This document shows, piece by piece, positions 1-55,643 of a stretch of DNA of 64,000 bases. Below the pieces are notes generated by a model, which searched no databases, was not told the origin of the DNA, and saw only the letters and a list, made by a program, of their open reading frames with translations. Source of the stretch: Ramazzottius varieornatus (taxonomy: Eukaryota > Animalia > Tardigrada); the NCBI GenBank assembly GCA_001949185.1, contig BDGG01000004.1, positions 4,249,777-4,313,776 on the forward strand. The letters run 5' to 3'. Position numbers and translations under genes: made by a program. Each line of letters starts with the position of its first letter. Within the stretch, counting starts at the first letter, position 1.

Positions 1-3000
1 TCTTTTCACTGACACTTTGGCGGCGGAAGTATTGCACAAGGAATGTTGCTGCATCTGTAGAGCGGCTAACCGCAGTGCCACGTCACAGCGAAGCTCCGTG
101 GCGAAACGTTCATCTATCACGTCGTTACAGCACTACAAACACAAGAGGATCATCGACGGACATTTCACAAAACAGTTTTCAGCTTCACAAATAAAAATAC
201 AGCCGTTCAGTACCGTAGGAATTTATGACTTGACTTACCTGCATGTAAAAATAGTCCAAGGCGATAGGATCCTTCCGTAACAACTCAAAGGCATCGCGAG
301 GAATGAACGTAACTCGAAAAAGGCATCGAAGGTGCTGGGCGCCAGGACGAGCAGCAATCTGTAAGACCGGACAAAACTTGTGAACAACTTGTCCGGCTTA
401 TAAGCGAGTACAGTTTCCAGCAAAGCGATGTCGTACCTTGGCTATAGTGTCATCGGGGCTCAATAATTTCACTTGGTTCTTCTTGATAGCCTTGACACTC
501 TCAACAACCAAGGCAAAATGTTCTATGGCCACAATGGACAGCTTTTCCCGCAGCGACCCTATTACATCCTGCAAAAGAAGGTTCGCCAATTGAAACAGCA
601 GAACTGGAAACCCCCAGAGGGCTGCACTGTCACCAGCGCTATATCGTTTCGGCACGTACCCTGACGGTCGTTTTGTTATCATATTTGAAAGACTTGGTTT
701 GTCCGTTCTCCAAGAATACTTTGAGGACATTCGGAATGAAAGCGGAAGGTGGCATCTCTTGACTGGCGTCAGAGAAGACGTTACTGGGTCCGTTGATCAT
801 GACGCCATCGGCGAACCGTACCCGCGAAGGCTTGCTTTTTAACTTGGCCTTCTTGGCGGCGCTCAGAAAAGCCGACTTCCGGCTCGCCTAAACAAGTCCA
901 AATTGGTAGATATTGATATTCTTAGTTCGATGAAAAAGGCAAAGGTAGCGAACTGCACTTACATTATCACTTTGGGGCTGGCAGACCAACAGCGTCACCG
1001 TCTCTTTACATGCTCGGACGAGCTCTATCACATGGTCACGAGGTGCGCGTTCCACGTCCTCCCCATTGATCTTTAATATCTGATCGGAGGGTAGGAGTTT
1101 ACCGGCACTCGGTCCGTCTGGAAAGAAGGTGTCTACCGTCAACAGCAATCAAGTAAAAAGTCCCGACAAGCATCGATTTGACTTCCCCTTTCCAGTGAAA
1201 CTATGGATCGCTCAACGGGAAACCTACCTTCATTGACGAACCGTACTATCACCGGCTTCTCGCTGCCGGCCACAAAGCCGAACCCGATAGTCGAGTCCCG
1301 CTGTAGAGTGACTTCACGAGGAGTGGGAATGTCCTGTTCGGATTCATCATCGTTGTCACCTTGTAGGCGAGGATCGTCATAGGTGGTAAACTTATCGAGA
1401 TGACTGCAATAAAGTAGTGATATTTTGTAAGATAGGAAGATGATTTTGTAACATGTTCCTCGGAAGACTCCATGCTCATCTAGGCGGAAAATATGTATGA
1501 ACTGCCTTTCACCTCATTTGTGACTAGCACACTCGATTGAACCCATGTCTTACAAACTCGACCGCCATCTTGAATACGGTACGATCCGCGTTTTTCCCAA
1601 AATAACTTTTGATCGTGGTTCGTTACTTTCAAAAGAATCCGAGCGAGCATTCATCTGACTCAGCGAGGAACTAATCGCCTGGTATTGTCCCTGCATGAAG
1701 GCTTACTTGATGTAGTAAATTCTCCCCTGCTGGTCAACGGCACATTCCCATCCATACGGTAGCCTCCATTCACCGGCGTCCCAATTTTCCGTTGGAGGAA
1801 TCCATTGCGTAGTCTGCGTCGCATGACTGTAAACACAAACCACTACATTAGCTGCTCGATCAATAAGAAGTCACAGAAAGAAACCATGTAATCGTAAACC
1901 CAACTTAGAACACCCAAACCGAATTTAAGATACCTCACAAATTTACGAGGCCGAACTGGAGCCCGTCTAATTATCTTCGGCATGACTACCCATAAAGGAA
2001 TTACACTCTCAAGTCTTGCTATTCCAAACTATGCTGCCATCGAGCCTCGCCAGGTCCATGAAGCATGATATAAAACATTAGGTATCTCGAGCCTATTGTT
2101 CCCGCATCTCAAAGTACTTACCAATGTTTTTGCAATAGTTTCACACAATATACGATGAAATAAGCAGTTCGTCAATCTGTACGAAGCAGTCTTTTCGGGA
2201 TTGTTATTGTCTGATGTAGACTGTATTGTCATTCTCAAGAAACCATATGGTTTGTCAGCATATTCTGCGGTTATATTCACACTTATTTCACTTGGCGAAC
2301 TGCCCAGTTCAGCTCGTGGTTATCCCGACACACACTTGCGGGTCTCGTGTCCTTTCTTTTCAAAACACCAAAAGCCGAATCGTATGCTTTCGAACGAGTT
2401 CGGAACGCGTGTGGCTGCTGAGCGGGCCATCCAATAAGGGCTGGGTGCAAATGTTTCATCTTCCCACTGCACGCTAACAGAGCTCGAGCTGATTAAAGTA
2501 ACGTTGTCAGCGTCGATGCCGAAGGCATTAATCGATGCGCCGGTAGCTGAGGAAGGCATGCAAACCGCCAAGTAAAGTAAAAGAGGCCGTAATGGCATCC
2601 GGCCCTCTTGTTATTGTACCTCCTCATTTTAAACGGACAGGGCGAGGGCAAGGCTGAGGGGTCCTCTCCTCGTTTATTGACAGTTTCCAGCAATAAATCC
2701 CGATTAGCCTGGATGGCCACAGCACACTTGTTCCAGGTCGCCACTTAGCACACATCTTCGTCCAGCGCCTCGAGTGGCACCAGCACCCACCACTTCGCCT
2801 GATTACAATGGCTGGATGGCTCTCTGTGCATGCAGCGATCCTGATCACTTTAACCATTCTGCCATGGCTCACACTTCACAAATTAGCACTGGTCAATTTA
2901 GAACTGGGCCTTGTGGACATTCGGTTATTATTGCACACGTACCAAAACCGCACACCCTGTATATCATACAAGACTTTTTAAAATACTGCAAAATTTAGTT

Positions 3001-15000: not shown

Positions 15001-16904
15001 TGGTCTGCGTGTAACACCCAAACACTCCTCTTGACTAACGGCCCATACATTAATGAAATCCAAGGACCTCTTCTCAGCCATGGTCTGTATTATTCGCATC
15101 GCACGCACCCTCATTTCAAGACTTTCCTTCGCTTTAAACGGAAGTTCGCGAAAGTGCAGGCTCTATGGAAAAAGACAGCTATGTTTTCTAAGGGTCTTCC
15201 GTCCGTCTCTTCGCCCATGTCCTTGATCAAGACGTCAAAAAGTCAGATGAGAAATGGGCTTTCGGAGATACTGAGGACTGCTTATAAACCAGCATCTACA
15301 CAGACAAACTTCCAGCTCTTTCACATCAATCAATCTCCATGCCGCGCAGTACCTTCTCCTCGTTACTGTCAATCCTCCCGTTCAAGGGATGCAAAATTAA
15401 AGGACCTTAACACGACTGCGGAATCAAGACTTTCCAATAATATATTAGAGTAAAGTCTGAGTGAAAAAGTCATGAGGAAAAACCCCAAGTTCACGATGAG
15501 CCAGCTTTCGGTCTACCGCGCAGGTTCGCAAAATAACCACGAACACGGCGTGGTACACTAGAGTGTCAAATTAACACAAAACAAACCCCCATTTGGGAAG
15601 CGCGGCATAATTTCCGACCACAAACTTTCTCACGAAGACCGTGCAAAAGTGAAAGACACATCCATTTTTCCGCCGCATTAAACGCGGATATGAATTTCCC
15701 ATCACGTATCGCTTTGATCAAAATGTTTCCGTTAGTATATAGCATTCGGGCTTCGTAATAAGAGTGCTGGATAGCCGGATCAGTTTGCTCTACAGAGAAA
15801 AATCGTCTTCGCGACAAGCGACCGAAGCGCGGAGCACTTGATGAACTTCTCAGCAGGATGCTCCACAATATTATTTTCACGACATATCAAGTGTTTGCGG
15901 ACAGTTGGCTAACTGAATTCTGCTCCCATAAAATCACATGGTGCCGCTCTATTTACGGACGGATCTCGTACCGGCTGTTTTTAAATTGGCCCAGTAAAGC
16001 TACCCAAACAAGCGAGGCATTCTTACCATGAAAGATTTGAGGATTTCGACAACTGATGTAATCCCAAATGAACGACAGCAAAATGCACGTCAAAATCGGC
16101 TGTTAACAAGGCCAGTAAAAGCCTAACCCCATCCAGAGCTTCGACGCTCGAGAGTTGAGTGATAAGGAAGAACTCGTGAAATGCGTCACCAAATGGATTA
16201 GGCAGATTTAATTCCAAGTCTCACAGTATACCACAATCGGCACTGAAAATGGCCAACCAGGAACATGATCAGATTATTCGCGAAAACTACACAGAGAAAT
16301 TTAGCTTTGTATCGGACATCATCATGTAGGACCCAGGTTGCACGAGCGCTCATTTATACTATCTACCCTTCCTTTTTTCTCACTGAACGCTCAAAAGATG
16401 CGCCATAGCCGCCATTCACCAGAGACCTTCCCGCGAGCAATTGCCGGTATACAGCATCCCACGAACCAATCATGGTACGTCCTGTACGGAAATGGGCGTG
16501 CAGGACCCTTTGGCTGCTAGAGCGTGCTGTAGTAGCTATTTTGCCGTCCATGGATTGACAGCTTGTCGGCAAAAGCAAAGCCAGCAAAGTCAGAAATCGG
16601 GAACACCACCATACACATCATCATGTACACTCCATGTTATACTCCCACGCTACACAAGAGATTTACAACAAGCCACATCCAACTAACCATAACCCTCTTT
16701 ACACGTTCAAACACACATACAAGAAGCCACATGCAAATGCATCGCTGCGCACTCTTCGACCAGGAAGCCGCGCGATGTTTCTCGGCGCAAATTTGCCAGA
16801 TGAAGTTACCCAGCGCTGAATCCATGTGTCCATCTCAAAAGATCTGGACGTACTGTAAACATTCGCCATCTGTCACGGTACACTACTAACTAGCACTTTG
16901 CGTG

Positions 16905-18270
16905 AGCTCACCCAAAGCTGCACTTTATTATGCTCTGGTGACTACTTCCTCGAAACTGACAATAAACCGGACAAGGAAGTTTACAGCGAACTGTATCAAG
17001 AATCATACATAAAAAACAGTTCTGCCGAGTTTCTCATACTGTAGTCATCGACCAAGAGTCCGCGAACCACTGCAAGAAAATAAAGAGGACAATAGTGCAT
17101 AGTATATAGCCTCACATCCAGTAGATTGTACAAGGAAGCGCAAGCTGAAAATGCATGGGCGAGAGCTTAGATGTCCTCCATGTCTTTCTCGAACCAGCCT
17201 GATCCTGAGAGAAGTGCCAGAGTTTAGTCCAACCTAAATATGGAGCAAGTCGGCGGAAGATACTCACGAGGGACTTTGAGCAATCACAGGTTGTCCCTGT
17301 GGAATGACTTCAAACGTGTCGAGAGGAAACGCTGATAGCACTGAGCTGGATTACGGAAAGACTATGAATAGTCAATGCGACAAGAAGCCTTGATGAACCA
17401 TACGCGGTTAGCGACGCTGCGATCAAGTTCAATCTTAAACGCCCCTAAAATGTTTCCTCCAGGGATGTGAAGCGTGTCACATCCGGTCATCTGAAATCTG
17501 GAACTGTCACTTCGTCTCACTCTCCCAAGCACTGCAGTGAATTTCTATCAGCGTACCAAACCCGCATTCCCCAATGATAGTCAGACACATGAGACATATT
17601 ATACCGCTTCTTCTGCCCAACTCAACGTGCAAGACCCTGCTTTAACAAAGAGTTTCGGAAGGAGCTCAAAAATCCCTTCATTACGATAGCCAACTCAGAA
17701 ACACTCCTTCTACATACTCAACTATCTTCCAACACAGCGCAATTCCCACTTCTCAATGAGCGGTCAAAATCAACAGTAAACATACAGTACCTGATATCCG
17801 CCATTCCTTTTCCGCGCGTGTCGAGTTTCCTTTGGAGGGAGTTTCTTCCGGCCTGTCTATCGCTTTTCCATGGTCCCGACGTCATGGGAGTTGGAAGTCC
17901 GAAATCCGTCCAGGTTCGCGTGCTCCATGACTTGACGACAGACGATTCGTTTTCGTCCTTTCAGCCAGCAAACCTCTGTCATCCCAAGCCTAGAACAACC
18001 GAAAGTCCAGCCTGAACTAGTTCAGCCTTACCCCAACAGTCGTAATGATATCCACATCCTAGGTCTTGATCCTGGTTTTGCCCACCAACCCAATGACCAG
18101 CAGGGATAGCCTGTGAAAGTTGAAATTCCACGTGCGAAACAGCGGAAAAAAACCAACTGAAGCCAAGATTTGGAAATTTGGCACAGCAATGTTTCGAGTT
18201 GTTGAATTGTTGTGGACGAAGGCGGCATCTGTTGTTCTTTCTTATCGCAAACTCGCAGCTGTCCCTACTC
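16905..18270 (-). ncRNA. Putative spliced transcript with no long ORF (lncRNA / small-RNA host / sORF RNA)
   Basis: Series of canonical junctions: GTAAGG..TTCTAG (~18031-17990), GTACTG donor (~17790), GTATGG..CAG (~17403-17346), GTGAGT..CTCTCAG (~17267-17205); AATAAA near 16924. All joined frames contain stops. Boundaries approximate. Confidence 0.4.
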
Positions 18271-18561
18271 GCACTCAACCTTAAATCAATGAATCCAGGT
18301 ACAATCGACTGTCATAATTATTGGCCCACACAAAAGTTTTGGCCACCGGCCGAAAGCGGCAACGCTTCGAATGATTGTTACTTTAGCGGGGAGATGCCGC
18401 TTTCGGCTTGTGGCAAAACTTTTGTCTCAGCCAATAATTATAACAGTCGAGAGTTCCTGGATTAATTGATTCATTGACATCAAAGTTTAATGTAACATCC
18501 ACATAATCAATATTCTGGTGAATCAATGAACGATTTTTAAAAAGCTGTTGAACCACCTCAG

Positions 18562-18859
18562 CAGTGGGCAGAGTAGATCAGTAAGGCGGCGGCCACAGTG
18601 GGATACGAGTCGCTCCTACGGGTCACTCCTACAACCCGAAGGGGCGCAGACCCGCAGTAGTAGACACTATGGTAAGGCGGGGCTGGTTTGAGAACTATGG
18701 AGCGGCAACGAAATGAAAATTGCCCTTAATCGGCCAACCAATATTGTCCAAGCTGGAGATTCTATGCCTTCATTGGTCGTCTAAGGATATTCTTTAATTT
18801 CATGCCCCACTCCATATGATGTCATCTGGTCGCGCCTTACTGATCTACTCTGCCCACTG
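18562..18859. mobile_element. MITE (~298 bp) between the putative lncRNA and SCOC
   Basis: TIR CAGTGGGCAGAGTAGATCAGTAAGGCG perfect over 27 bp; flanks CTCAG / CTCAT. Confidence 0.85.
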
Positions 18860-19140
18860 CTCATTTCCGAGTTCTTATGCGACCGAATTTCAGCTAAGAT
18901 CTTAGGACGGTAAGCTTAGATCATTCTGTACTGTCGAGTAACGTGGAGGCCTCGGAGACAGAGACAGAACTGTAGCGTCTCAGGGAATATCGGGGTGAGC
19001 TACGTCGTGCAGGGAGTTGCTCATTTGACCCGACCAACCACTGCCTTATTGATCGACAGAATCTGCAGCTTTGCACTTTGCCACTTTTGTATTTCCCGAT
19101 TTCCCGGAGTCAAACATCTTTGTCCACGCAGTCTCCCAAC

Positions 19141-19985
19141 ATGGACAATATTAAAAGCCCTATATTCGAGCAACTACCTGGTATCCCGCTAGCAGATGAA
19201 GATGCCTCAGGTGGGGGTTCCACTTCCGCTAGTCATGTTATGTAGAGGTGTGCACTTCCGTTTGTCAACTTGGTTGTTCCAGACGATGATGAGCGTGATA
19301 GCGACGATAATGAAGAAGATCAGAGAACGCCAGACCGTGAAGCCTCTCCGGACGGCAGTCGGAGCGTTGCTGACGATGGAAGCAAAAGCGTGGACTCGTT
19401 CAGCTTCCAGAACGATGGTACGTAAGTCCAAGTATTCATATAATTACAGTTCATTACCGTAAGGATTTATGTAACATTCACGTCGGTGGCTCTTGGTGAA
19501 GAGAAGGCTTTTGTACCCAAGAAGTAGTGTACATGGACCGTTTTTGTAGATTGTGCTCTTGACGAAGCGGAGGAGAAAGCCCGTCTGATTGCGCAGGTTT
19601 TGGAACTGCAGAACACGTTAGATGGTGGGTAACTCTTCTGCTCCATCTGCAGTATTGGTGTTTGCTGTTCCCTTATACAGGGAACGGAATCTTGTATAAG
19701 GGATTCTCCTTTGCAGATCTCTCCCAGAAGGTTGACAGTGTGAAAGAAGAAAACCTCAAGCTGAAGTCGGAGAATCAAGTTCTCGGCCAGTACATTGAGA
19801 ACCTGATGGCTGCCAGCAATGTGTTTCAGTCGACCACGCAGAACCCGAAGAAAAAGTACGTCGGCAAGCCTCGAGAACTTTCGAAAGAAGGTCTTGTGAA
19901 TCAGTATAACATTACGCCAAATGAACGCTTTTCTGCTTGCTCTGATTTTAGGCCAAACAAGAAGCCATCGAAGCCCAGCTCTTGA
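19141..19985 (+). CDS. SCOC: Short coiled-coil protein (SCOC/UNC-69)
   Basis: Exons 19141-19210, 19283-19417, 19550-19624, 19717-19855, 19952-19985; hallmark [58 protein letters not shown]. Confidence 0.96.
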
Positions 19986-20721
19986 GAAACTCGGTCCCAA
20001 AGACTTGTAGTCGTTTGGTGGTTTCCGCTTCGAGATATTCCTACTTATGGCTCTTTTTCAGTTCTCGGTCAGAAGCCTGTGGATTTGGCTGCTCGCTCTT
20101 GGATAATTTTCCAGATTTAGCTCGCTCTGAAACGCCGCTTTTGTATTATAACACGTAATGATACCGTTTGTTCCTATCGAGTCGTTTCCGGTGTGATATT
20201 ATTTCTGTGTTGCTTTAGTTTCTTATGCTCGTACTGTTTTACCGATAGGTGAAGGTTTTTAGCGAACATGGAGCCGTTCTGTATCAGACTTTGTGTTCTC
20301 GGGTTCGTGCTCAGGTGCGCGGACGCTCTTTTTATTTTAGGCTGTTCATATTTCGGCTGGTCTTTTTTCTGTTCTGTTTTACGTTTCCTTTCGCTCAGTC
20401 TGGCTTCGGTACTCGTGCAACAGTTATTTCTGAGGTACTTTTTGGTTTCCACGTATGCAGACATATAATAGCCGAACATGAGTTATGAATTACAACTTTG
20501 GTGGTCTGGAACTTCAAGTCTTCAACCAGTTCTCAGTGGTTCAACCTGCTTTCCCCCTCTACGCCGCAGTGACGTCATGTCTCACCTGTGACAGCAGCAT
20601 TCGATAATACAGTTCAGTCAGGTCAGATTATTGATCGTTGGGATCCACAGTCACCCAGATATCGCGCTGACTTCTTCCATTCTGTTTGCTCGAAATTTAA
20701 ACATCCCCAGTTAGTTTAGCC

Positions 20722-22139
20722 ATGGAGAAGTTAACCTTTACTTTGCCGAAGATCGCGCCTCCCAAAGTTCCAGTTGCCGTACAGTTCGATCTGCTGGTCA
20801 GTCAGAACCCTCCTTGCTACGCCTTGCGATTTTCTTCAGATACTGTGCTGGAAGGTGCCTGGATAAGCTGCACTATCCCTATCCTCTTTCTATCGAGCAG
20901 CACACCTACCTACGAGATGACAAGGACGGACTCCGAGGGAGAGCTGAAGTTGGGAAATAAGTTTAGCGCAACGCTGCGGCTAAAACCAAATTGTCGTACT
21001 TCAGAGTTCTACTTCCGCCCTGTCGAAGGGTACTCCGGCACGCTGGAAATATTCGTGTCAGCAGTCAATAGCAGTGGCCGCTTGACGCAGCGTGAAAGCG
21101 TCAACCTCACGCCGCTATCTTCTTACTACAGGATCGCGGAAGTGGATGATAGCCGGTACACATTTGCAAATGCCAGGTTGTCCGAATCACCATTCTGCAT
21201 TCGAAATCATCTGTTCATTTCAGGGCCTATAATACGCTGCGGATAACAGGCCAGTTCAGTTTCTTGAAGGTGCAGTCATGGTTGCAGATGATCCTCCAAG
21301 GTGCGGAGTGCGACACATCCGGGTTTCGATTCGACGAGCATGGCGGGACGTTCGCGTTCGAATCCATGCTTCTTCACTGTCACCTACAATGTCAAGTCAT
21401 GTAAGTTCCCGTTGAAAGGACCTCGACACTTCCTTCGAGGGAGGTCACAGTTTCTCAACTTTTCAGGGACAAGGAAATTGTTTTTCGCTGCGAAAACCCA
21501 TCAACTATCGCAATACTGATACAGTTCATTACTCGGCAAGCGACCGCGGAGAAGATCAAGCTCGACATTAGACCAAGTCAGTCTTTTAGCAGCAGTACAG
21601 TAGCCGAAAGAAAACCTTCCGGTTCCAGGGTCCTCTTTGTAGAAACGATGGAAGGAACCTACTCAACGACGTTGGAGAGACTTGTCAGAGTCATAACGCC
21701 TATCCGAAGTCGTAACGATCTTCAGAACTTGACAGACGCGCTCGCGGTAAGAACCTTCTTTTGGAACAAATGCCAGTACTAACGTGCACCTTCTGTTCCA
21801 GGAAGTGATGGCTGCGGAGGGTGAGAATGCGAATCTCCATCCGGAATTCCGGTCGGAAAACTGGAAACAGATGCGTAACGGCGACCAACTGCAGAAAGCG
21901 GAAAACAAAGCCAACTTGGATTTCGTTACCGGTACTCGTACAAACCAGGATTTCCAATATACGTACATGGAACCTCTTAGCAGAGACAGTTTTTTGCAGC
22001 TCTCATAATAGATTTAATGAAAGACTGTGCCAAGCTCCAAGGCACGAGCATCACGTCAAAACTACCCCATCTACTTGCCACACTGCAAACAAATCACTAC
22101 ACCCTCAAGGACCTGCAGAACTTCGTATCGGCAATCTAA
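20722..22139 (+). CDS. BBS7: BBS7-like protein, C-terminal half only (GAE, platform, hairpin/helical), 364 aa
   Basis: Exons 20722-21155, 21224-21400, 21467-21576, 21643-21746, 21802-21931, 22000-22139 total 1095 nt, open to TAA. Motifs colinear with BBS7: FRPVEGYSGTLEIFV, LTPLSSYYRI..DSRAYNTLRITGQFSFLKVQSW, FRCENPSTIAILIQFITRQATAEKIKLDI, LIIDLMKDCAKLQGTSITSKLPHLL. Confidence 0.88.
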
Positions 22140-22395
22140 AGAACATCAAAATTCTGAAACAGTAACCAAATTTGCAGAACCTTAACCCACGGTTAAGCAA
22201 AACGTTAGATAAAACACGGGGAGGATAAGATCAAGCGTAACACCGTACATGTTCGCTCGTCGCTGGCTTACAAGAGGTCCTTTGCCCAGACGGGGTATTC
22301 CAGCTGCTGCTGATGAGAGAAAGAGAGAGAGACAAGTGATAATCCATGAATGGAGAGCGACGGGTACGAACTTCTTGGAGCGCGTAGCTCCATTC

Positions 22396-22888
22396 CTAAA
22401 GCTGAGTCTTCGGTCCTCGAAACCTTGATCTCATGTCAATCTGCCGGATAAAAACCCGTATTTAGAGAACACGACATTGAGGACGTTGCACGAATTATAC
22501 AGTAAAGTCCTCAATACATCCGATTTCACTTGTAGTAGCAAAACCCAAGCTTAGTTGATATTCAGACTACCCTTTCAGTAAAACACGGACGAAACCATCT
22601 ACCTACAAGTGATCTTTTGCATTCGAAGAACGCTGTCTGTAGGCTGTAGCACTCTTGAGGAACAGAAGGATGATGCGTCCGTAGGCATTCTTTCGGTGTT
22701 TTCCTTTCCTGTAGAGGCTTGCGACAATTAATTAAGGAACTAGGGAAACCTGTTTGGCTTAACACAGCAAAATGAACAACTCATACCTGACTACAACATT
22801 CTGTCTCTAGCAAGCAGTTTTTCAGATCGGCCCGGAGTCCGGCACAAGTGGACGTATCTTTGAGATGAACTTCTTCGTAATACTTCAT
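22396..22888 (-). CDS. COA5: Cytochrome c oxidase assembly factor 5 (Pet191), 82 aa
   Basis: Exons 22888-22787, 22708-22607, 22440-22396: MKYYEEVHLKDTSTCAGLRADLKNCLLETECCSQ-ERKTPKECL..CYSLQTAFFECKRSL-IDMRSRFRGPKTQL. Confidence 0.95.
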
Positions 22889-23265
22889 CCCGTAAGCGAA
22901 GATATGGTACTCACGGTTATAGACGAAGCTGTGGCATGTGCCGTCTGATCAGCTTCGATGCGGCGCCAGCCAAGGTATAAAAATTTCGCTTGATAGTGAC
23001 GGTCGTGCCCAACTCTCAAGAAGCACGTATCACGAAACGAGGATCCGGGACTGCGGGAGGAGGAAATGCTCCTGCCAAAATTTTGATTCATTAGGGTCAC
23101 GCTTCATGCCCCAATTTCCCAAATTCTTCTTAGGGCTCGGGTTGGCAGGCCGGGCGACATGGCTTGCCCAGCTGGACTGTTAAAAACGATCAAGCGGTTT
23201 CGGGCCAGAGTGGACCGCTTCCGCTTCTGCTAGCCGGTATTGGATTTACAATCTTTCGAGTTTGA

Positions 23266-23290
23266 AGTTTCCGCCTTGCCGGCGGAAACT
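23266..23290. promoter_or_regulatory. 10-bp inverted repeat in the probable bidirectional promoter between COA5 and the 23.4-kb locus
   Basis: AGTTTCCGCC-TTGCC-GGCGGAAACT; each arm resembles an ETS/E2F-type GGCGGAAA site; CTTCCG motifs nearby. Confidence 0.45.
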
Positions 23291-23402
23291 CGGTCATTTC
23301 TCTTTGTTGACGCTTCGGAAGCTCGGCTACATCTAATCGTAATTATCTGGATCTACTAGAATACGATCGAAAGCGGGCGCCGTGGATGATATAGGGGCAA
23401 GA

Positions 23403-24348
23403 ATGGCAGAATCGAAGGACGAAGCGGCCGAAGTGGAAGAACTGCTGACCAACGAGTTCACTGTTGCGCAGTTGTGGCAGCAGCTTCCTGTGCTCTGCCA
23501 GGAAGAAGTTCCCATATATTTGGATCTTCAGAGAGGCAGCCGGCTGTGCAGATAAAGAAGTGGACTGAAACTGTTCCATTGTTAGCCGTACTCTGCAGTC
23601 TACATTGTTGAATTCCATTTATTTCGCGGAGTTTCTACTTCGTGGAAATCTTCGCTCTCTCGACTTTTCAATGGTGGTGTGGTGTTTTCCAGATGGACAA
23701 AAGAACTACTTACAAAGTTCTATACAACAGCGACAAAATCCAGCCGCTTCTGTGGACGGAGCTGATGTTCAAAGACTATCAGAAACCGGCACCATCAGAA
23801 ATATTGTCATCCTCAAAATTCCCGAAGTTCTCTTCTGAGGGACGGCATTGCGCGCCAGATAGACGCGCTTGATGATCAGCATCCAACAAACACGACCTTC
23901 TGTAATATGAACGTACAAAATGGGGACCGGCATGTCAGGGATCTTTGGTAGGGGGTATCTCACTCCAACGACGAGAAAACATATTGTAGGCATATGTATT
24001 ATACAAAGTCTTTCTCTGGCTCATCCCACCAGGATACTTAGCAGACAAACGGACGCAGACATCGAGGCAGAACTTGATGCTCTCTTCGCTGAGCCCGGTA
24101 TGGACTCCAAAGATTATTCCTCAGCAGATGTTCGTAACGGCCTAGTCAGTGAGTATATGTGTGGGCGCCTCAACGGGTGGATGCTCGGAGAAGCACCTAG
24201 CGATTCCGATGCGATCTGGTCATACCCGGACGAACAGCTTCAGTGGCTAAAGAGTTTGTTAGGAAGTCTGCAAAGAAAGGTCGCGCCAGATATCATAGAA
24301 GTTGTCGATGCAATTTCGGAACTGCGAAAAACCAGAGCAAGACAGTAG
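23403..24348 (+). pseudogene. Uncharacterised gene with an interrupted reading frame (pseudogene or assembly indels)
   Basis: ATG 23403 (MAESKDEAAEVEELL..). Probable introns ~23589-23692 and 23948-24032; last exon open to TAG 24348. A continuous protein needs frame changes near 23530 and 23830. Confidence 0.45.
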
Positions 24349-24838: not shown

Positions 24839-26450
24839 TCAACCTCGTGGAGGTAATGTGCATGCTGGACATTGCTGAAGTCCGTTTGTGTCGCAGTTGG
24901 AACATCGAAGAGCGTAAAACTGATCTGTGAAGGCGTTCCGGTGAGAGGACTTCTTACTTCCATAACACTGTTGACAGGGAACTACCGTGAAGCCACCGCA
25001 TGTACTGCAGGGCGGGGTTACTCCATAACGCTGGAAGAAGAAGAATATCTCGGTCAGGTAATGCTTCCTTGTGGGTCTAACGGAACGTGCTTACTCTGTA
25101 GGGCTTCAACATAGTACGAAGCTGTCCATCCTCATTCAAGTTGACGATGCGTTCAAAGTCCTGAAATGACATAAGCATTTCCGGTCAGTGGTCAGTACTG
25201 TAAACAAGCGCGGGATCCGGAGAACGAGTGTCCAAACAGATTATCCAAGCTAGAATCAATTTGCGCTGAAGGTCTGGGGCAACTAGTATTGGCCGAGGAA
25301 CCTTTCCAGGATCATCGGTCGCTGTCAGCCTACCGTGACAGACATAAATCTTCTTGATTGGATTGCTAGCTGCATGATAATCCGTCAGTCGGTCTGCCGA
25401 GCGCTAAGCTTGCTCGAGGTGCGCCAGAATAATCACACTGGTCGGATGACAAGAAAATTGTGAGTTTGTCAAGATTCAAGGTTGGGACCTCAGCGCCAGC
25501 ATTAGCCGGCATGTACTGTAGCAACTTCAGAGAGATTTTTCGGGTATTTATCATAGCACCATTTAAGAGTTAAGACAATGCTGTCATAATTGAAGGTTAG
25601 CTTTAAGTACTCACTCCAACATAATGGCCCTCGACGAAAAGATGAGGAACTTTTTCGGCCTTGTCACTGCCAATACGCTCTTTCAATTCGTAGTGGTAAT
25701 CCCGATTGATAAATAAATCATAATCCGAAAACTGAACCATCAAATTTTGCAGGATTTTCCGGATCTCCATACAGTTGTAATAATTATCGCGGTAAACGTT
25801 GAGCGAAGTTGAATACAGAACCACTTTTCCTTTTTCCAACACAGTAAAATTCTGCAGAAAAAAAACCAGATTCAGTATCAACAATAACAAAATTACATCC
25901 GTATACTAACACCGCAGAAAAATTCTCTACCTTTTCACTTGTGGATTTTGGCTCTTTGTCTTTGAAGGTAGCAACCGCGGCCCGGACTCTTCCGCGAACT
26001 CCTCTGGTCGACCCTTTCCGGCTTACGATGGGGGCGCTGACGTGAGGGTTTGATCTGGGAGAAAATTTTCACGAAGAAAATCAGCATGGAGTAAAAGCGC
26101 TAAAAATGTTCGGGAATGTTCAGTTGTGATCGACCATACCTTTCCGATATACTTAGAGGCCCATTGAAGGTATCTTCAGGTTCATCGTCAGGCTGCAGCT
26201 CTTTACAATGGAATTTCATGTATTGGTCGTATTCGAAGGGGTTCCCCAAGCCGTTGGTGTTCAGGTCCTCTCCAATTTCCGAACGGACTTCCGAACTCAG
26301 ACAGTCGCTGTATGTCTCATCGCCGTCGCAGGAGCCGCCAGTAAATCCACTCAAGCCCGAATCTGTTTCGCGATCCGAATCGGCATTGTCTGAGAACGAT
26401 TGAGTCTTACGCAGTGCCAGGTAAGGATCATGAGATCGACGGTTCCACAT
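24839..26450 (-). CDS. Glutaredoxin domain-containing cysteine-rich protein (GRXCR1/2, CG31559-like)
   Basis: Exons 26450-26140, 26054-25931, 25851-25615, 25160-25095, 25030-24839; GSTRGVRGRVRAAVATF, Grx fold KVVLYSTSLNVYRDNYYNC..VPHLFVEGHYVG, C-terminal CSTCGG..PCQQCYGSKKS..RCSNCDTNGLQQCPAC. Confidence 0.93.
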
Positions 26451-28381: not shown

Positions 28382-31300
28382 TCAGTGGTTTCCAATGGAC
28401 CGATATTCGATCGTCTTCTGCAGTGCCTGTGTTCTATGTGGATCTATGCGCCTGTAATCAATTGCTGGGTTTTCCAGACTTCGGGGACTTAGCTGTGGTA
28501 CAGGCTTGACCGCTGTCCTTGCAGAGTCGTATCGTAGATCCACAGGCTTCAGACTAGCTTTCTGTCCCGACCCAGTGGACGAAACAGCGACATCGGTGTA
28601 CTCCACATCTATGCTATTGGAAGTGCCATAGGCCGGGGGTCTTCGTTGGCGTGGAAGGGTCCGAGTTCCTGTATGCCTCTGCAACCACAAACGCGCTGAA
28701 TGCAGAACAGAATCACAAGGATATGTTATAGTAGTTTGATCGTACGCGGAAGCCAAAGTCGACACTATCATTGCTGTCGTCTTTCAGCGTGAGATCTTCT
28801 TCGGATGTGCTTTTGGTGCTTTTCAGTCCGGGAGAGCGTAAGGACGTGCTGCTTTGAAGTATATGAGACACTGAACGGTCCGGTCGAGTGAGCTTTGTCG
28901 GATTCGATGGGCTGCTATATAATCCGGGAGAGTTAGGTGGAGATCCGATCCGTCGTAAATGCCCAGCTCGTGGCACAGCTGCGTAAACACGTCTTAGCTT
29001 CCCGATAATATCATTTTTCACAACAAGAAAAGAAGAGCGCGAAAACGTATGGTGGTTACGAGATAAGACTTGTATTTCGTCAAGACGGTGCATTAAGAGC
29101 ACGGCCCTGATCGAGTACGTGCAGTCAAGGCCGTGCCGGGTCTTTGAGAACATTTTTCAGCTTAGCTTTGCTTCTGAGTAGACAGAGTAGTTACACAGTG
29201 ACACTGCACTTACTTGCAGAATGGCCCGTGAAGTCTTCGCTTGAAATCATCGGTTTGGAGTTACGATCGACAGTAGGCGGCGTCGCCTCGCTCTTCACAT
29301 TCTCTTTGCTTACCGCCACCAGACCGGAAGTGGACGACAAAGAAGGACGTGGGCTTATGCGAGGAGCGGACAGACTACCCGAGCTAGATATACCTTTCAC
29401 AGGAGGCCGATCGTACACAGACTCGCTGACTTCTGACACGGAAACCGACGGCACCAGCCTGCCACTTGGTTTCATCATCGTCGTAGCTTTTGGCTTCGGT
29501 ATCTGGTCATACTGCTGCGACTCTGATTCATTCATCACCGATAGCTTCCGCGGAAACGTGTTTATGATCGAAGTCTGCCGGCTGGCTGAACGACTGGAAG
29601 AGGGCACCACATCGTACGTCTGACCAATCTGCGGTGTCTCCACCTGAAAGCAATGCATAAGATTCATGACGAACGATATAAAGCACCAATTAGTCGCCGG
29701 AATTCATCTTGCTTGCACTTATCGAGCGCTACAGTCATTTCTGCCCTTTTTCTACGAAACGCCTGTAGGCCGTGCTTAAAAATTTTCGTAAAAAACGGGC
29801 AACTGGCACGGAATACTTCCTACAACTACTACCAGTTTGTAGATAGAATACCTGAGAAGATCGAGCATCTTCAAAATCTTTTCGTGTGGGTGCCCAGACG
29901 GAAGGTGTGCGAGAAGGCGGTGTATCGTAAGTACCAGTCGGCACCGTGCTGTCCGATTCACCTGACCATCGTTTGGCCAGTTCCGTCGCGTCTTTCGAAT
30001 CGTACACTACGCACTGCGGCGGACTCTTGTAGAAGCCCTCGTCGTTCATCGCGTGTTGTGTTGGAGGAGGTGGCGCGAAGTCATCTGGAATGCTTAGTTC
30101 TTTCTCCACGTTCCTCTTCTTCAGGGTATCTGTCGTGCGATCTAGCGGCTTCGAGGCTTTTGATATACAATTTCGTAAGTGGACATACGGATTCTCGTCA
30201 TTCATGTTTCTCTTCTGTGCGAGGGCGGAATTCTTGGGACTTTGGAGGACTGGCGTCGCGTTGGACAAAGAACGCTCTTTGGATAGTGTGGTGCGGGGTT
30301 GTGAACTAACGGACGGACTTGTTGCCAACTCTTGCGGAGATGTTACCGTTCGCGCGGACTGTGCTGTGCTTTGGCTAAGAGCGAAGCTCCTCGCATCAGC
30401 TGCCTCTGGAAACGAGAAGAAACCATATATAAAGGCGCTACTTAAACCGTTTCGAGGCCCAGACACCGTGTTTTAGGATACGCGAGAAGGAGCCGGAAGT
30501 GGAAATTAAGTTACCGTCATCGCTTGTATCACTTTTGATCCCGCAAACTTGGCTCAGGCATGATACCCATTTGGTCATGTCCAGCTGCGAGGTTGCAGCG
30601 AAGAAATACTCTTGCTTCGGTGTCTTCAGCTTGAAAGCGTATCGGTAAGTTCCACGGATGTCAATACAGTTTTGTATTGGCTCAACCTGGAAACAAGAAG
30701 TTAATCATGTACTGGCTATCGTAGAACTCAGGTTAAGGTTCCGTCGAGGCACCGAGCTGTTCTTTACCTCATCGCTTTGGCTGAGTTGAATCTGTCCAGA
30801 TAACTTCTTCTTGCTTTCGTCAGCGTAGTAATCCAGCGTGTGACGTCCATCAAGAGCCGGATGATGCTGGACAATGTACCACTTCTTGGTCCATCCCTGA
30901 ATGCAAGAACAACGCTATGACAAACCTGTTGGTTAGATGGTAGTAGCTACCTTCGGCATGTATATGGGTGAAAGATAAAGATACAGTCATCAGGTCGAAC
31001 CTTCCAATCCGGGCGAAGGTCGACCATTTGACGCGTACATGGTCAACAGTCACAACATATAGTACAGTATTATACATTCTAAAATACCGCAGTATACTGG
31101 CATGAAGCTAAAGTTGTGATCAGCGACGAAACGTCCCATGCAAACGGCGAAACGAATCGCGTCCGCCCAACAATAGAAGGTTAGTGGCAGAAACGCGGAT
31201 GAGCATTAAAACAACCCTAAACTTGGTTGGTCTGACGTAGCTCGAAAGAACGTTCAACCGGAAGTTGAATAGCATAGTATCGTCAGTGGTGCTCGGAGAG

Positions 31301-32832: not shown

Positions 32833-33878
32833 AATGCAGGCCTGTCTCTCCGGAATAAAATAAAGGTATTACCGTATCGCTGTGCGCTTAGCCAGAACAG
32901 AAACTCAGTTAGTTGATCTTCATTGTCCCGGAAGAGTGGATATTCCGATGAATCATGTTGCCGTCCAGAGGATAATCCATCTGCTGCATATCAGAAGCTC
33001 AAAACATCAGACGGTAGCCATTGCAGATCGCAGCTTACCTTTGTGGCTCGTCCGTTTCCTCTCCTCAGCGTTACAGTGACTTCTTGTATCCCGTCGGGCG
33101 CTCCAACAATCGGGCTGATCCCGATTCTGGAGGCAGAGGTGTTGAAACCTGGATCTAAAAACCAACAACACTAACACCGATAAAACTTCGCTCCCGTTTT
33201 GAGTTTTGACTTCGAAACCTTTTTGGAAAAGGCCAAAAGGGTTACAAAAAAAGTTCAGTCCAAGCTCCTAGCCCTTGAGTCTACCAGTTGATTCTTGATA
33301 AGATTGGCCATATACGAGTTCCACGGCTAGAATCCAGTCTAAATTTTTGAATCATACACGACTCACGAGGATGTGACTGAGTGAGTCATTTCCCTGCAGG
33401 CAAGATGCGAGGTCAACTCGCGCACCTTATAACGCGACATTGTGCATCGAATGCGCGGGTTGAACTAGTAATTGATCCGAATGCTGAAAACCACAACAAT
33501 GCAAAGTCACTATCAAAACTATCTTTCTTACGGTTTTGTCTTCATTTCCTCGGTGGGCTAGCTTCATTTATACTTCATAATCGCTCAATCCTTTCGACGT
33601 GTCCCGGATGACTGGTACTGCTCCGCCATGAAGGACTGCGTCTGTCGTCTGCTTTAGCGCATCTGCTCGGAATCCTGCTCCCTGTTCGGCTGTTCCACGT
33701 CTTCTCGTCGTCAGTTAGACCATCGGGTAGGCTCTCTTCTCCTTCCATAGTTTCTGATCCTTCCTATACCACGGAGTAACCACCAGTTGGTTCCTTCTGC
33801 TTGCACAATAGTGACAGTGGGGAACTACGGGTATAGCGCCACCATCTGGATCCCCCTTTTGTCCCCGCTTCGTCCAGC

Positions 33879-36800
33879 ATGTCGAACGCTAACTCGAAGA
33901 AATCCTCGTCATCGACCAGTGGCTTAAAGTCATCGCTCCAGAACCTTAAGCATCTTGCTGCAGACAAGGTATCCGCCGCCCGAGCAGCTATCGAGAAGAC
34001 GGTGGATGCAGCCGCGGCGATGTTTCCCATAATCGACCTGACGGAAGATCCGGCGAGTGTTGCCACCTCATGGCCAGCGCCTCCTGTACCAGTGTATGAA
34101 ATAAGAGACTGTAATGGCGACGACGTCCAGATTATCAGTTCCGATTTCACCAGTCAGGTCTGTCCCAGCTGTACATACAAAGGCATTCCTACTCCTTCCG
34201 GAACCTGCGCCATGTGCCATGCAAAGATTCCCAAACAGACTACGACACCGTCTGCTCCTGCGATGAATACTAATGGACATGGTCATGGTCGGAACGGAAG
34301 TGCGTCTTTATATCCTTCGCTTGCTGCTGTGAATGGATCATCAGACTCAGCGCAAGGGAAAGTCTCTACTCCAGAATCACTCACTTGGTCATGTTCAAAA
34401 TGCACGCTGCAAAACAACAACAGTGAAATGAACTGCGCTGCTTGTGGCGGAAAGAAGGAAGAAGGACTCAAGACTCCATCAAAAGCTTCGCGGGCGTCGC
34501 TAAGCAGATCTATGTCTGCCGAACAGTGCTGGCCATGCCCCAGGTATGGCCTCCTTGTTTCTCGACAGTCGAAAATATTGTAGTGCTCCTAAATTAACGC
34601 GCACTCAACCACGTGATGAGTCACCGTTGCCCAGTGTGATCAGATTCTATCAGCGTAGCCTGTCCGACTCTCACCCGGGCATCATTTACTGCTCACGAGG
34701 TTGAGTGCGCGTTAATTTAGGAGCACCACAGTAATATCCGTGAAGTCTGAAAAGTGAGGAGATTTCAATATGTTGCAGTTGCACGTTCCTCAACCCGCAG
34801 TCCGGGAATGTTTGCTTGATGTGTTCTACTCCGAAGAAGACAACAGGAAAGGGTTCGTCGGAGAAATTTGAGGCTAATGACGTGGCTGAACTGCGGAAAT
34901 TTCACGAAGAAGAAGCCATTCAGCAGTGGGAAGGCATCGTCGACTTTTGTCGCAGGGTATGTTGGACAAGTCACGTTCGCCACTTTTGGCACTCAGATAT
35001 CAACACCGCATTCTTTCCAGGACAGAAACCCGTTTGTCGATGACCGTTTTCCGCCCACTATGGCCTCGATTGCTATTGGGAAAATACCACCAGAAGCCAG
35101 GAAAGTGCAGGCGTGGTTACGTCCGTCACAGTTAAGAGGCTCAGGCGGTTTCGGCGGACCTAGTCAGCAGTGGACGGTGTCGAGAACGCCAATGGCTTCC
35201 GACATTCGACAAGGTTGGTTAGAAGGGCTCTGTATGCAAAATCTCATGGGCTATCCACTGGACTCTGTAGGTTTGCTGGGGGATTGCTGGTTTCTGTGCT
35301 CACTGTCCGTTGTCGCCGAGCGTCCGGCCTTGATCAACAATGTGATTATGACGAGAAACTATAACCGCGAGGGCGCGTACCTGATTCGCCTTTGCATAGA
35401 CGGCTTATGGAAAGTCATTCTAGTGGACGACCTCTTTCCCGCCGATGCCCACGGCAACTTAGCCTTCTCACAGGCTGCTCGGCGGCAACTCTGGGTGCCT
35501 CTTATAGAGAAGGCTTTGGCGAAAGCCCACGGAAGCTACTACGCCATTGAAGGAGGCTTCGTCAACGAAGGTATTCGAAAACGAAGTGCAGAAAAAGTCT
35601 TGAATACAAACCACACGATATTTCCCACGGTGTAAAGGAAAGATACGAGTCTGATTTTCAGGTATGATGTTTTTGACTGGTGCGCCCTGTCAGCGGATCA
35701 AGTTCAAGGCCGCGACGGACGAAGAAATTGACTCAGTCTGGGCCGAGCTCATCAGCTGCCACAGTGCTGGGTTCCTAATGGGAGCCAGCTGTGGCAAACC
35801 GAACGAGTCGATGAACGAGGAAGAGTGCAAGAATATGGGCCTTAGACCACGCCACAGCTACAGCGTGCTGGACGTGGTTGACATCGACGGGCTTCGGCTA
35901 GTTCGTCTGCGGGATCCGTGGGGTCGCCAGGCATGGAAGGGAGACTGGAGCGACAGGTCGAGGCTTTGGACAGCCGCACTAGCCGCTAGGCTGACTCCAC
36001 AAGGTGGCTCGGAAGGTCTGTTCTGGATCTCGTTGCCCGACCTCCTGAAGTATTTCGATACGGTGGATGTGTCGAAATATCGGGAACACTGGAAGGAACT
36101 TCGCGTGCAAGGAAGTTTCCCGAATAACGCCAATCACCGCAACTGGAAAGTGTGGAACCTGAGCTTGGGGGAGACCACGGAAGTCGATCTGACGCTGTAC
36201 CAACAAGGCTACAGGTAATACTGAATTACCAATTTCGCGAGAAGTATTGCGAGTTAAAGCTCGTTATCTTTACAGAGGAGCTTCTACCGACGCGAATGCT
36301 CATCATGTCGACCTGTTGGTAGTAGTCCTGTCAGTTGGACGTGATAGACAGATTGATAAGCTGGTCAGCGTGTCGAAGCGATCGACTTTCTCATTTACCG
36401 GGACTTCTTGCTTGCTGGACAAGGGGAACTACATCATTTGGACAATCGCCATGAACCACTGGAACGGTAGGTGGTGGATTAGGATCTGTTGAAGTCTTCA
36501 GTATACTTTACGCATTTTTATGATTACAGATCTGGCTATACCGGAGGAAGCCTTTCCGAAATACGTGATCGCGGTCCACAGCGCGAAGCCAGTTGTGGTG
36601 GAAAGAATTTCCGCACCTCCGTTTGGTCTCGCGGACGCGGTGATTCTCTGGGCAAGAAAGAAGGGGACAGTGAGCCGGGTAGGTGCCTCACTGTGCGGGC
36701 GCAAAAAAATTTAGTCACATCCGTCTAACCGACTTGAGTATTGTTGTGGGAAATTTCCATATGTGTTTTATTACGTTCATTATGCGTTTCTTGCAGGATC

Positions 36801-39812: not shown

Positions 39813-40536
39813 ATGGCGAAGGTTCCGTTGGATTACAGCTTCAAAGACCTCATCTCGGTATCTGGTAAGTTCATACGTGCGGCGACCTAACTTGGTAAAC
39901 TATGGAATCCTCCGCAGAAATTTCATCAAAACTCGAGACGTTTATTCACAGAGATCGCAGTTCAACATCCACGAAAGTCTGTCCTTGGTTCAGAAGGCAA
40001 ATACGATGCGACGGCTATCAAGCTCAACAACAATAATCTACCAACGGTGCACGGTCTCACTGATATTCTTCCCCGAATAATACTGCAGCCGGAAGCGCTC
40101 AGTTGGGTCGACCTTTCCTTTAATAATCTCACCCGCATAGAACCGGTAACTCATTATCACCACTCTTCGTTGAAGTGAGGTAGTGATTAGTTTCCGGGTC
40201 GTTTCAGGTACTAACACAACTGTACAATCTGCAAATTCTATACCTACATGGGAACTGCATTAGCGATTTCCCCCATCTGGAAATACTGAATCGTATGCTG
40301 ATCTTGAAAACGCTGACACTTCATGGCAACCCCGTAAGACAAACCTCGTGCTTTCTTTATTCCGCAGTGATATGTACGGTGTATTTCAGGTTGATCGGAC
40401 GGTTGGATACCGGTATATTGTCGTTTCATGGCTAAGGCGTCTGAAGAATTTAGATTTTAGCGTGGTCACTGACTTTGACAGAATGCAGGCAGAACTTTGG
40501 GGTAGAAGATGGTTCGTAATGAAAACAAAACTCTAG
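39813..40536 (+). CDS. LRRC51: Leucine-rich repeat-containing protein 51
   Basis: Four exons: MAKVPLDYSFKD, AIKLNNNNL, LSWVDLSFNNLTRIEP, LQILYLHGNCI..LTLHGNP, GYRYIVV..LKNLDFSVVT. Confidence 0.9.
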
Positions 40537-49810: not shown

Positions 49811-50486
49811 GCTTGTTTCATCTGCTCATGGGTGGTACTTTTGGCCTCCTGGCCGCTCCATCGTCCATTTTTTATCGAATCTTCATTGGCCATAAGTCTT
49901 AGATCATTTTTGAAAGTAGCTTGCCGTTTCAGAAGGTTGAGATGAGCTTTCGATCATCCCGCTACCGGGCAAGATCAGCTGATAGGATCTCTGATCCCCG
50001 GTATGTGCGATCCACCACATAATCGTACGCGTGAACCAGTCCCGGATTGCCAGAACGCGGCATACCGGCTAATCGAAGATCCGCCGTCAATCAGTGAGAC
50101 GTNNNNNNNNNNNNNNNNNNNNNNNNNNNNNNNNNNNNNNNNNNNNNNNNNNTCAAGCTACGTTGCCGTTGATTACCTGATTGTGCATCCTTGGGGTGAG
50201 CACGTCTCACTGATTGACAGCTGATCGTTGATTGCCGCGTTCTCGCAACCCGGGACTGATTCACGCGTACGATTGTGTGGTGGATCGTACATACCGGGGA
50301 TCAGAGATCCTATCAGCTGATCTTCCCCGGTAGCGGGATGATCAAGAGCTCATCTCAACCTTCTAAAACGGCAGGTTACTTTCAAAAACTGATCTAAGAC
50401 TTATGGCCATTGAAGATTCCATAAAAGTTGGACGATGAAGCGGCCAGGAGGCCAATAGTACCACCCATGGGCAGATGAAACAAAGC
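49811..50486. mobile_element. Long-TIR (foldback-like) element spanning an assembly gap
   Basis: About 290-bp inverted arms (49811-50102 vs ~50203-50486) around 50 N at 50103-50152. Confidence 0.85.
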
Positions 50487-54919: not shown

Positions 54920-55643
54920 TAGGCTTCCTACGTAACCGTTCCTTTATCATGCGCATCGGCAACCTTCTTTCTGCTCTAACCTAGATTAGACACCTTGCCT
55001 TTTGTGCAGATGGTTTGAACAAATAACTGTTTGGCCAAACAATTGCATTTAGAGATGTCTAAAAATTTACAACTAATAATTCGCTTTGCGATTCACGAAA
55101 CGAAGGGGGAGGGCTTCATTCCTGAATCCTGAAGGAACCTCTCATCCGGTTACAAACGTCTCCGATTTGCCTTAAGTAATATTCTGGCGTGCAGAACGCA
55201 TTGGGAAGCGTAGCTGATGGCCGGATAGCGCAGAGTGATCGCTCCGAACAATAGGTCAGGCAGGATTGCATTTGAGGTGGCTCTTTCTTAATAATTACTG
55301 ACAGGCAAAATATCACGACCGGCTTTCACACTTTATTCCATAGTTTATCTCAAACTACCACGAGCTTTGCAACTCCTCAAAGATGTCAGCAAATGCTTTT
55401 ATAGACCATAAGTTTTGAAATCAACAGGTTGTTGTTTGTTGATTCATCTGCGCAATTCCAAGGACCTTACTCTCGTCTTATTTGACCTGCAGAACGTGAC
55501 CATCCCTTCTTACCGGCTAAAACAACCAACCATTTTTATTTAAAAAAAATTCAGGACCCACAGTATTTTGTAAGGAGGGCACCAAGCTTGGGAGACGAGA
55601 TTTTGACACCCCGGCCCGCGCTTGAACGGTCCTATGGGACCTG

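Follow-up and report, generated by a model that had tools for sequence, protein, structure and literature searches.

A BBS7 gene that begins at the GAE domain in Ramazzottius varieornatus and related eutardigrades

BBS7 is a human ciliopathy gene. In the tardigrade Ramazzottius varieornatus we find a BBS7 gene whose reading frame begins at the GAE domain, that is, at the middle of the canonical protein. This raises the question of whether the gene is complete as it stands, and if so what such a protein may do. We studied it in a stretch of 64,000 nucleotides of contig BDGG01000004.1, here called the window, to which all coordinates refer.

The gene lies on the plus strand at 20722-22139. Six exons, 1095 nt in total, splice to a frame of 364 aa followed by TAA, and the five introns are all GT..AG and 55-68 nt each. 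The earlier note had described six exons that give an uninterrupted frame of 364 aa from the GAE domain onwards, and this is exact. Exon 1 (20722-21155) holds the ATG and the GAE domain in 145 codons, and its start methionine is that of the public protein GAU98573.1. Exon 2 (21224-21400) carries the first part of the platform domain (PF23361, E 3.6e-7) and exon 3 (21467-21576) the rest of it (PF23361, E 1.1e-5). Exon 4 (21643-21746) is the putative helical hairpin region and aligns with the orthologues, exon 5 (21802-21931) is helical, and exon 6 (22000-22139) holds the C-terminal helices and the TAA and aligns with XP_055333164.1 to the last residue.

Splicing was studied in contigs from sequencing runs whose RNA status is guessed, none of them being recorded as RNA. 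The contigs are spliced across introns, which indicates processed transcripts. In the four runs aligned to 16000-24000, the BBS7 joints are found 5/5 in X1, 3/5 in X5, 2/5 in X12 and 0/5 in X14; within 20200-21500 in four further runs, X2, X6 and X7 contain both joints and X17 none. By exon, the donor of exon 1 is joined in X1, X2, X6 and X7, exon 2 has joints in contigs, exons 3 and 4 are joined in X1, X5 and X12, exon 5 in X1 and X5, and exon 6 in X1. Parts without contig cover were not used for expression ranking. Coding differences in other runs are synonymous in five of six cases, one of the six being read from the letter between the two sides of a joint.

At its 3' end the gene meets a convergent neighbour, COA5/PET191 (22000-23076, minus strand; PF10203, E 4.6e-10), which shows joints of the form CT..AC and, at 22000, a loose end rich in T. 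The 3' UTR of this neighbour and the last BBS7 exon overlap, and some contigs extend further into BBS7, so the contig depth over the 3' part is uninformative for BBS7. The X1 contig probably merges the two transcripts at its far end.

Residues 1-204 are identical (204/204) to GAU98573.1, the product of the R. varieornatus locus RvY_09702. This public model of 204 aa has the same start methionine, retains intron 2 and stops inside it (window 20722-21404), with the final 160 residues missing. Intron 2 is spliced in contigs of six runs, which gives the 364-aa form. The public model is therefore wrong at its 3' end, and the case is hidden from automatic surveys.

Upstream there is little space. 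An in-frame TAA at 20698-20700 lies 7 codons 5' of the ATG, where the earlier note had placed it. Further, SCOC/UNC-69 (19141-20485, plus strand; coding part 19141-19985, PF10224 E 2.9e-17, four joints) ends its stop codon at 19985, 736 nt from the BBS7 ATG. The earlier note had argued from this distance that a propeller could not be accommodated; this is correct, and the true limit is even tighter. In most runs the SCOC contigs stop at 20474-20503, and the poly(A) is found at 20485 in X1 and X2, which leaves 236 nt. The SCOC homologue in a published table is RvY_09701, on the same scaffold, in agreement with the gene order of the window.

The gap that separates the poly(A) site of SCOC from the most upstream 5' end of BBS7 (20486-20642, strandless) is the likely promoter; no cover is seen at 20508-20639 in any of four runs. 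Read from the sequence, it contains a TGACGTCA palindrome at ~20569-20576, about 70 nt before the furthest 5' end, which we take to be CRE-like. The likely 5' UTR, including the in-frame TAA, is 20643-20721 on the plus strand, as given by one contig of one run (X7, 20643-20928); it is unspliced, has no loose end and a depth of 4.1, and crosses the TAA into the ATG. Two other contigs start near the ATG, at 20719 in X6 and at 20750 in X2, both without loose ends.

The wider neighbourhood has some further features. Two MITE-like elements lie just 5' of SCOC (18284-18471 and 18560-18861). They show 58-nt arms at 86%, accompanied by inner arms, and terminal inverted repeats of 29 nt that match perfectly and are separated by 244 nt. 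Run X5 has loose ends near 18863, which point to a difference between strains at this site. A GRXCR1/2-like gene with a glutaredoxin domain is found at 24842-25905 (minus strand; PF23733, E 5.6e-11), and a leucine-rich-repeat gene with a weak LRR match, presumably LRRC51-like, at 39891-40175 (plus strand). A calpain with a zinc-finger-like N-terminus (33837-36500, plus strand) we take to be calpain-15-like, a PH-domain gene (28382-30704, minus strand) to be GAB-like, and a PDZ gene (185-1513, minus strand) to resemble FRMPD4. By eye, 55517-57040 looks like a non-LTR reverse transcriptase fragment, with no Pfam match at E 0.01, and 63256-63732 like a fragment of a hAT-type transposase.

Is the protein really BBS7? 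Domain searches on single exons give partial answers. The GAE family (BBS7_GAE, PF23360) matches exon 1 with E 0.0076, below the curated cut-off, and matches the corresponding exon of a relative (P0003, 74% identical) above it. The platform family PF23361 (BBS7_pf) reaches 30.7 bits on exon 2, with a cut-off of 28.2, and 70-73 bits in the orthologues OQV20537.1 and XP_055333164.1. Exons 5 and 6, scanned singly, have no Pfam match, and the hairpin/helical family PF23349 is found in XP_055333164.1 with E 1.9e-5, below cut-off.

A profile of the tardigrade proteins gives a clearer result. Searched against solved chains it matches residues 370-701 of the 715 of bovine BBS7 (E 3.9e-27, 98 bits), and among BBSome subunits the sequence match is to BBS7 only. 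Exon 1 aligns to the bovine GAE domain, and the window protein aligns with XP_055333164.1 to its end. In the Atlas, the model of the Paramacrobiotus protein superposes on the C-terminal part of BBS7 models of 712-751 aa with a TM score of 0.80-0.81 by query, and the top three structure rows are BBS7. The Atlas also holds short BBS7 clusters of 165-304 aa, which may be fragments or natural truncations. An AlphaFold model from a four-row alignment was poor (pLDDT 51, pTM 0.37) and was used for ranking only; with this low-confidence model Foldseek places BBS7 (E 9.9e-17) ahead of BBS9 (5e-6) and BBS2 (7e-5). The window protein is very divergent, with ~25% identity to bovine BBS7. By descent the tardigrade gene is a BBS7 orthologue, closer to BBS7 than to BBS2, BBS9 or BBS1.

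Canonical BBS7 (bovine 6VBU chain 7, 715 aa; C. elegans OSM-12) has the same order of GAE and platform, followed by the hairpin that the tardigrade protein probably has too, and is the best match among solved structures in both sequence and fold. Compared with it, the tardigrade protein is without about the first 360 residues, i.e. the propeller, the ARL6-binding loop (320-335) and the coiled coil. The propeller family PF23743 is absent from the polypeptide, as the frame begins at the GAE boundary with the stop 7 codons upstream, and the heterodimerisation helix or coiled coil (about 339-363) is absent as well, there being no residues before the GAE strand. Since these two defining features are missing, we regard the protein as half a BBS7, outside the canonical group.

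The short form is not limited to one genome, which the earlier note had not noticed. The Hypsibius exemplaris orthologue OQV20537.1 has 338 aa (57% identity over 302 aa) and the Paramacrobiotus metropolitanus orthologue XP_055333164.1 has 371 aa (51% over 364 aa). Both start 10 residues before the methionine of the window protein. OQV20537.1 diverges after about residue 310, likely because its last exon was missed.

Exon-1 reading frames were also found in four further relatives (P0003, P0004, P0005 and P0012), all ending at the exon 1 boundary. The frames of P0003, P0004 and P0012 start no more than about 20 residues from the common start point, and their leaders, of at most about 20 aa, cannot be aligned; P0005 begins inside the GAE domain. 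As all four were called as genes on raw contigs, they may have upstream exons. Pairwise identity of exon 1 is 49-72% among the six compared. An exhaustive search with exon 1 matched eight proteins, four of them tardigrade-like; the other four (P0006-P0009) are long and repetitive and were discarded as noise. Among 192 pattern matches in metagenomes, none was confirmed as a further tardigrade BBS7 locus.

The surroundings of the gene differ between genera. In Hypsibius BBS7 is flanked by a ZBED-like gene and MGST2, in Ramazzottius by SCOC and COA5, and MGST2 is the next locus number after BBS7 in Paramacrobiotus too. Hypsibius BBS7 has PGK1, the ZBED-like gene and SLC30A9 as neighbours (BV898_05579-05583); in R. 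varieornatus these correspond to RvY_17552-17556 on BDGG01000015, while BBS7 adjoins SCOC on BDGG01000004. The gene has likely moved in the Ramazzottius line. As the neighbours differ, the truncation is likely older than the move to SCOC, and would date to the common ancestor of Ramazzottius, Hypsibius and Paramacrobiotus.

The architecture is old and conserved in these eutardigrades: three named genera have it, and three further relatives have the same exon-1 start. The claim of breadth concerns these eutardigrades, the set containing no heterotardigrade or Milnesium sequence. An assembly collapse upstream, which the earlier note had allowed for, is answered by short orthologues in other genomes with different neighbours; assembly error is ruled out by these and by the position of the only N run of the window (50103-50152). 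A pseudogene is likewise ruled out, as the gene is spliced, conserved and intact.

To see what has been kept and what lost, the mammalian complex is the best guide. In the structural papers, the head of the BBSome is formed by BBS2 and BBS7 through dimerisation of helix and GAE, and the C-terminal coiled coil of BBS7 touches the neck (PMC7018513). The ARL6 site is described as a composite of BBS1 and BBS7 that includes BBS7 320-335 (PMC7018513). The BBS1 propeller is held inactive by the BBS2 propeller, edge-to-edge (PMC7018513; PMC7311171), and the clash that blocks ARL6 is attributed to the BBS2 propeller and the BBS7 coiled coil (PMC7311171). The coiled coil is placed at 339-363, followed by an unstructured 364-376, and is described as the main clamp on BBS2 (10.1101/699223). 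The earlier note had the BBS7 propeller contact both BBS1 and ARL6. The contact to ARL6 stands, by way of the propeller and of the loop that links it to the coiled coil, but the edge contact to BBS1 belongs to the BBS2 propeller (PMC7018513, PMC7311171).

The propeller and adjoining loop of BBS7 are proposed to bind ARL6 and receptor cargo (PMC7018513, PMC7311171), and in vitro the propeller is reported as both necessary and sufficient for the capture of Smoothened helix 8 (PMC7311171). However, a core BBSome without BBS2 and BBS7 is described as stable and able to bind cargo (PMC7018512), and the place of BBS7 as main cargo-binding subunit is disputed (PMC7311171, PMC7018512).

Probably, in our judgement, the gene is a spliced and conserved eutardigrade BBS7 cut down to GAE, platform and hairpin, which likely pairs with BBS2 as a scaffold in a head likely without a BBS7 propeller. 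From the mammalian structures, the retained GAE would dimerise with the GAE of BBS2, and the hairpin would lean on the neck of BBS2 and BBS9. The lost part, residues 1 to about 365, would comprise the Smoothened-binding propeller, the loop at 320-335 to which ARL6 is bound by its back, and the coiled coil with its two roles, a share in the BBS2 clamp and a share in the ARL6-blocking clash. In general, then, the retained half would hold the scaffold surfaces and the lost half those for ARL6, cargo and clamp. The prediction for the tardigrade complex is a weaker clamp between BBS2 and BBS7, no contact of BBS7 with ARL6, and cargo recognition by other BBSome subunits: a trimmed head, in which BBS7 may serve to stabilise BBS2 only.

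Some known systems resemble this. The engineered 'GAE-end' fragment of BBS7, aa 375-672 (Yang et al. 2020, PMC7311171), begins and ends at nearly the same places as the tardigrade protein; however, it is a laboratory truncation made for capture assays, while the tardigrade BBS7 is a natural, conserved gene. Drosophila is reported to have lost whole subunits, BBS2 and BBS7 (insect survey PMC12491567; review PMC10356136), and its BBSome and the recombinant six-subunit human core, which is without the same two, have a likewise reduced head lobe (PMC12491567, PMC7018512, PMC10356136). In contrast, the tardigrades retain BBS2 and half of BBS7, so that the head is trimmed and not removed. BBS1 is also a naturally shorter BBSome paralogue, but with the opposite truncation: it keeps propeller, helix and GAE and is without the last two domains (PMC7018513).

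A different explanation is that the gene has been split in the linker after the coiled coil. Propeller and coiled coil would then come from another locus and reassemble on BBS2 through the coiled coil and the GAE, and the BBSome would be nearly normal. The position of the cut speaks for this: the protein starts at bovine ~355-370, right after the coiled coil (339-363; 10.1101/699223), and such a break leaves each half with a BBS2-binding surface of its own. The loss of the coiled coil alongside the propeller would also be easier to explain if it were supplied in trans.

The searches for a separate front half count mildly against a split. With Pfam, no BBS family, propeller included, was found in 87 plus-strand frames from position 12.3 kb of the window to the gene (exon 1 itself aside), in 105 plus-strand frames at 1-12.3 kb of the window, or in 105 minus-strand frames at 12.2-26 kb, 297 nearby frames overall. 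It should be noted that Pfam missed two of five of BBS7's own exon pieces, so these scans have low sensitivity; the Pfam set is assumed to include PF23743, as neighbouring and later accessions are present. The annotated neighbours in Hypsibius and Ramazzottius are unrelated genes, which also tells slightly against it.

Further, we used five expression tables of tardigrades that have columns for BLAST results (supplements of PMC11233135). These name homologues of BBS2, BBS4, BBS5, BBS7, BBS8, BBS9, IFT88 and IFT140 for H. exemplaris, P. metropolitanus and R. varieornatus, and give canonical BBS7/OSM-12 as BLAST homologue of the Hypsibius orthologue. In the five tables one gene only matches human BBS7 among the matches listed; that no second one appears is a further mild point against a split. 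There is no row for BBS1, true ARL6, IFT27, LZTFL1 or IFT172 among the matches listed in the five tables, and BBIP1 is not seen among those listed in two of the five. IFT172, we assume, is very likely present in tardigrades. As it too is missing among the matches listed, the absences of BBS1, ARL6 and the others are weak. For tardigrade BBS2 (RvY_08295, BV898_02693) the Pfam column names the domains N, Mid and C. Entries of this kind are usually taken over from orthologues, so they are no proof of the length of BBS2. Taken together, we regard a split gene as possible but unlikely.

It is quite improbable that the short protein works outside the BBSome, as a free adaptin-ear-like GAE-platform module with another role. 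The GAE-platform unit does resemble clathrin-adaptor appendages, in our fold matches as in PMC7018513, and the protein is without the coiled coil, which is held to be the chief clamp on BBS2 (10.1101/699223). No exact X-box was found near the BBS7 5' end with four consensus patterns, and the two one-mismatch matches near the start equal the chance rate. However, the alignment with BBS7 stays in register through GAE, platform and the putative hairpin, the part in contact with the neck, as far as the C-terminus, and BBS2 is retained.

The short form could also be an annotation shortfall: cis- or trans-splicing of remote 5' exons to the AG ahead of the ATG would make a full-length isoform. This AG ends at 20719, and two bases separate it from the ATG. 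BBS7 has little coverage at its 5' end, and the 5' end of an X1 contig carries 21 loose letters; however, these would fit a 23-nt adapter-like end seen on three X1 SCOC contigs, with the last two bases matching 20724-20725. No joint into the AG was found in any of eight runs, at least five of which have contigs near the start. The same strand upstream is taken up by SCOC, whose transcript has a poly(A) of its own, and three independent annotations start at the same place. We give this isoform very little credence.

Hardly credible at all is a decaying remnant on the way to the state of Drosophila, which lacks both BBS2 and BBS7 (PMC12491567). A core without these two is described as stable and cargo-binding (PMC7018512), and identity to bovine BBS7 is indeed as low as ~25%, but the frame is intact, identity between genera is 51-57%, five of six coding differences are synonymous and BBS2 is kept.

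Of the three readings in the earlier note, then, a remodelled BBSome is the best, a split gene is possible, and an intermediate of BBS2/7 loss is not supported, with BBS2 listed in three species and the identity above. The tables name BBS2, 4, 5, 8 and 9 for each of the three species, which argues against a Drosophila-like loss in progress.

Returning to the half-length BBS7 as a BBS2-bound scaffold, a more far-reaching version of it is doubtful, though conceivable. In such a eutardigrade BBSome the ARL6 activation module would be dismantled: propeller, loop and coiled coil of BBS7 would be gone, ARL6 and BBS1, as the rest of this binding site, lost or remodelled, and ciliary membranes reached without the GTPase switch. 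This lead comes from the tables, where no row for BBS1 or ARL6 is found among the matches listed while BBS2, 4, 5, 7, 8 and 9 appeared.

In a full-text search covering journals outside subscription, we found no paper describing a tardigrade BBS7; one paper that names tardigrades and the BBSome concerns the loss of RABL2, and among the papers listed for tardigrades and Bardet no title bears on the subject. The supplements of PMC11413396 and PMC11191345 contain no BBS terms, and the insect survey PMC12491567 makes no mention of truncation. The truncated tardigrade BBS7 is real, transcribed, conserved and apparently undescribed.

A natural, conserved BBS7 without propeller separates the scaffold role of the protein from its ARL6 and cargo roles, and provides a construct that could serve as it is to rescue osm-12 worms or BBS7-null cells. 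Were the gene split, eutardigrades would have a BBSome subunit assembled from two chains in a complex that is nearly normal. If instead the protein works without a propeller, and no other locus of the genome supplies the front half, their BBSome would likely be without the BBS7 surface for ARL6 and receptor cargo that is known in mammals.
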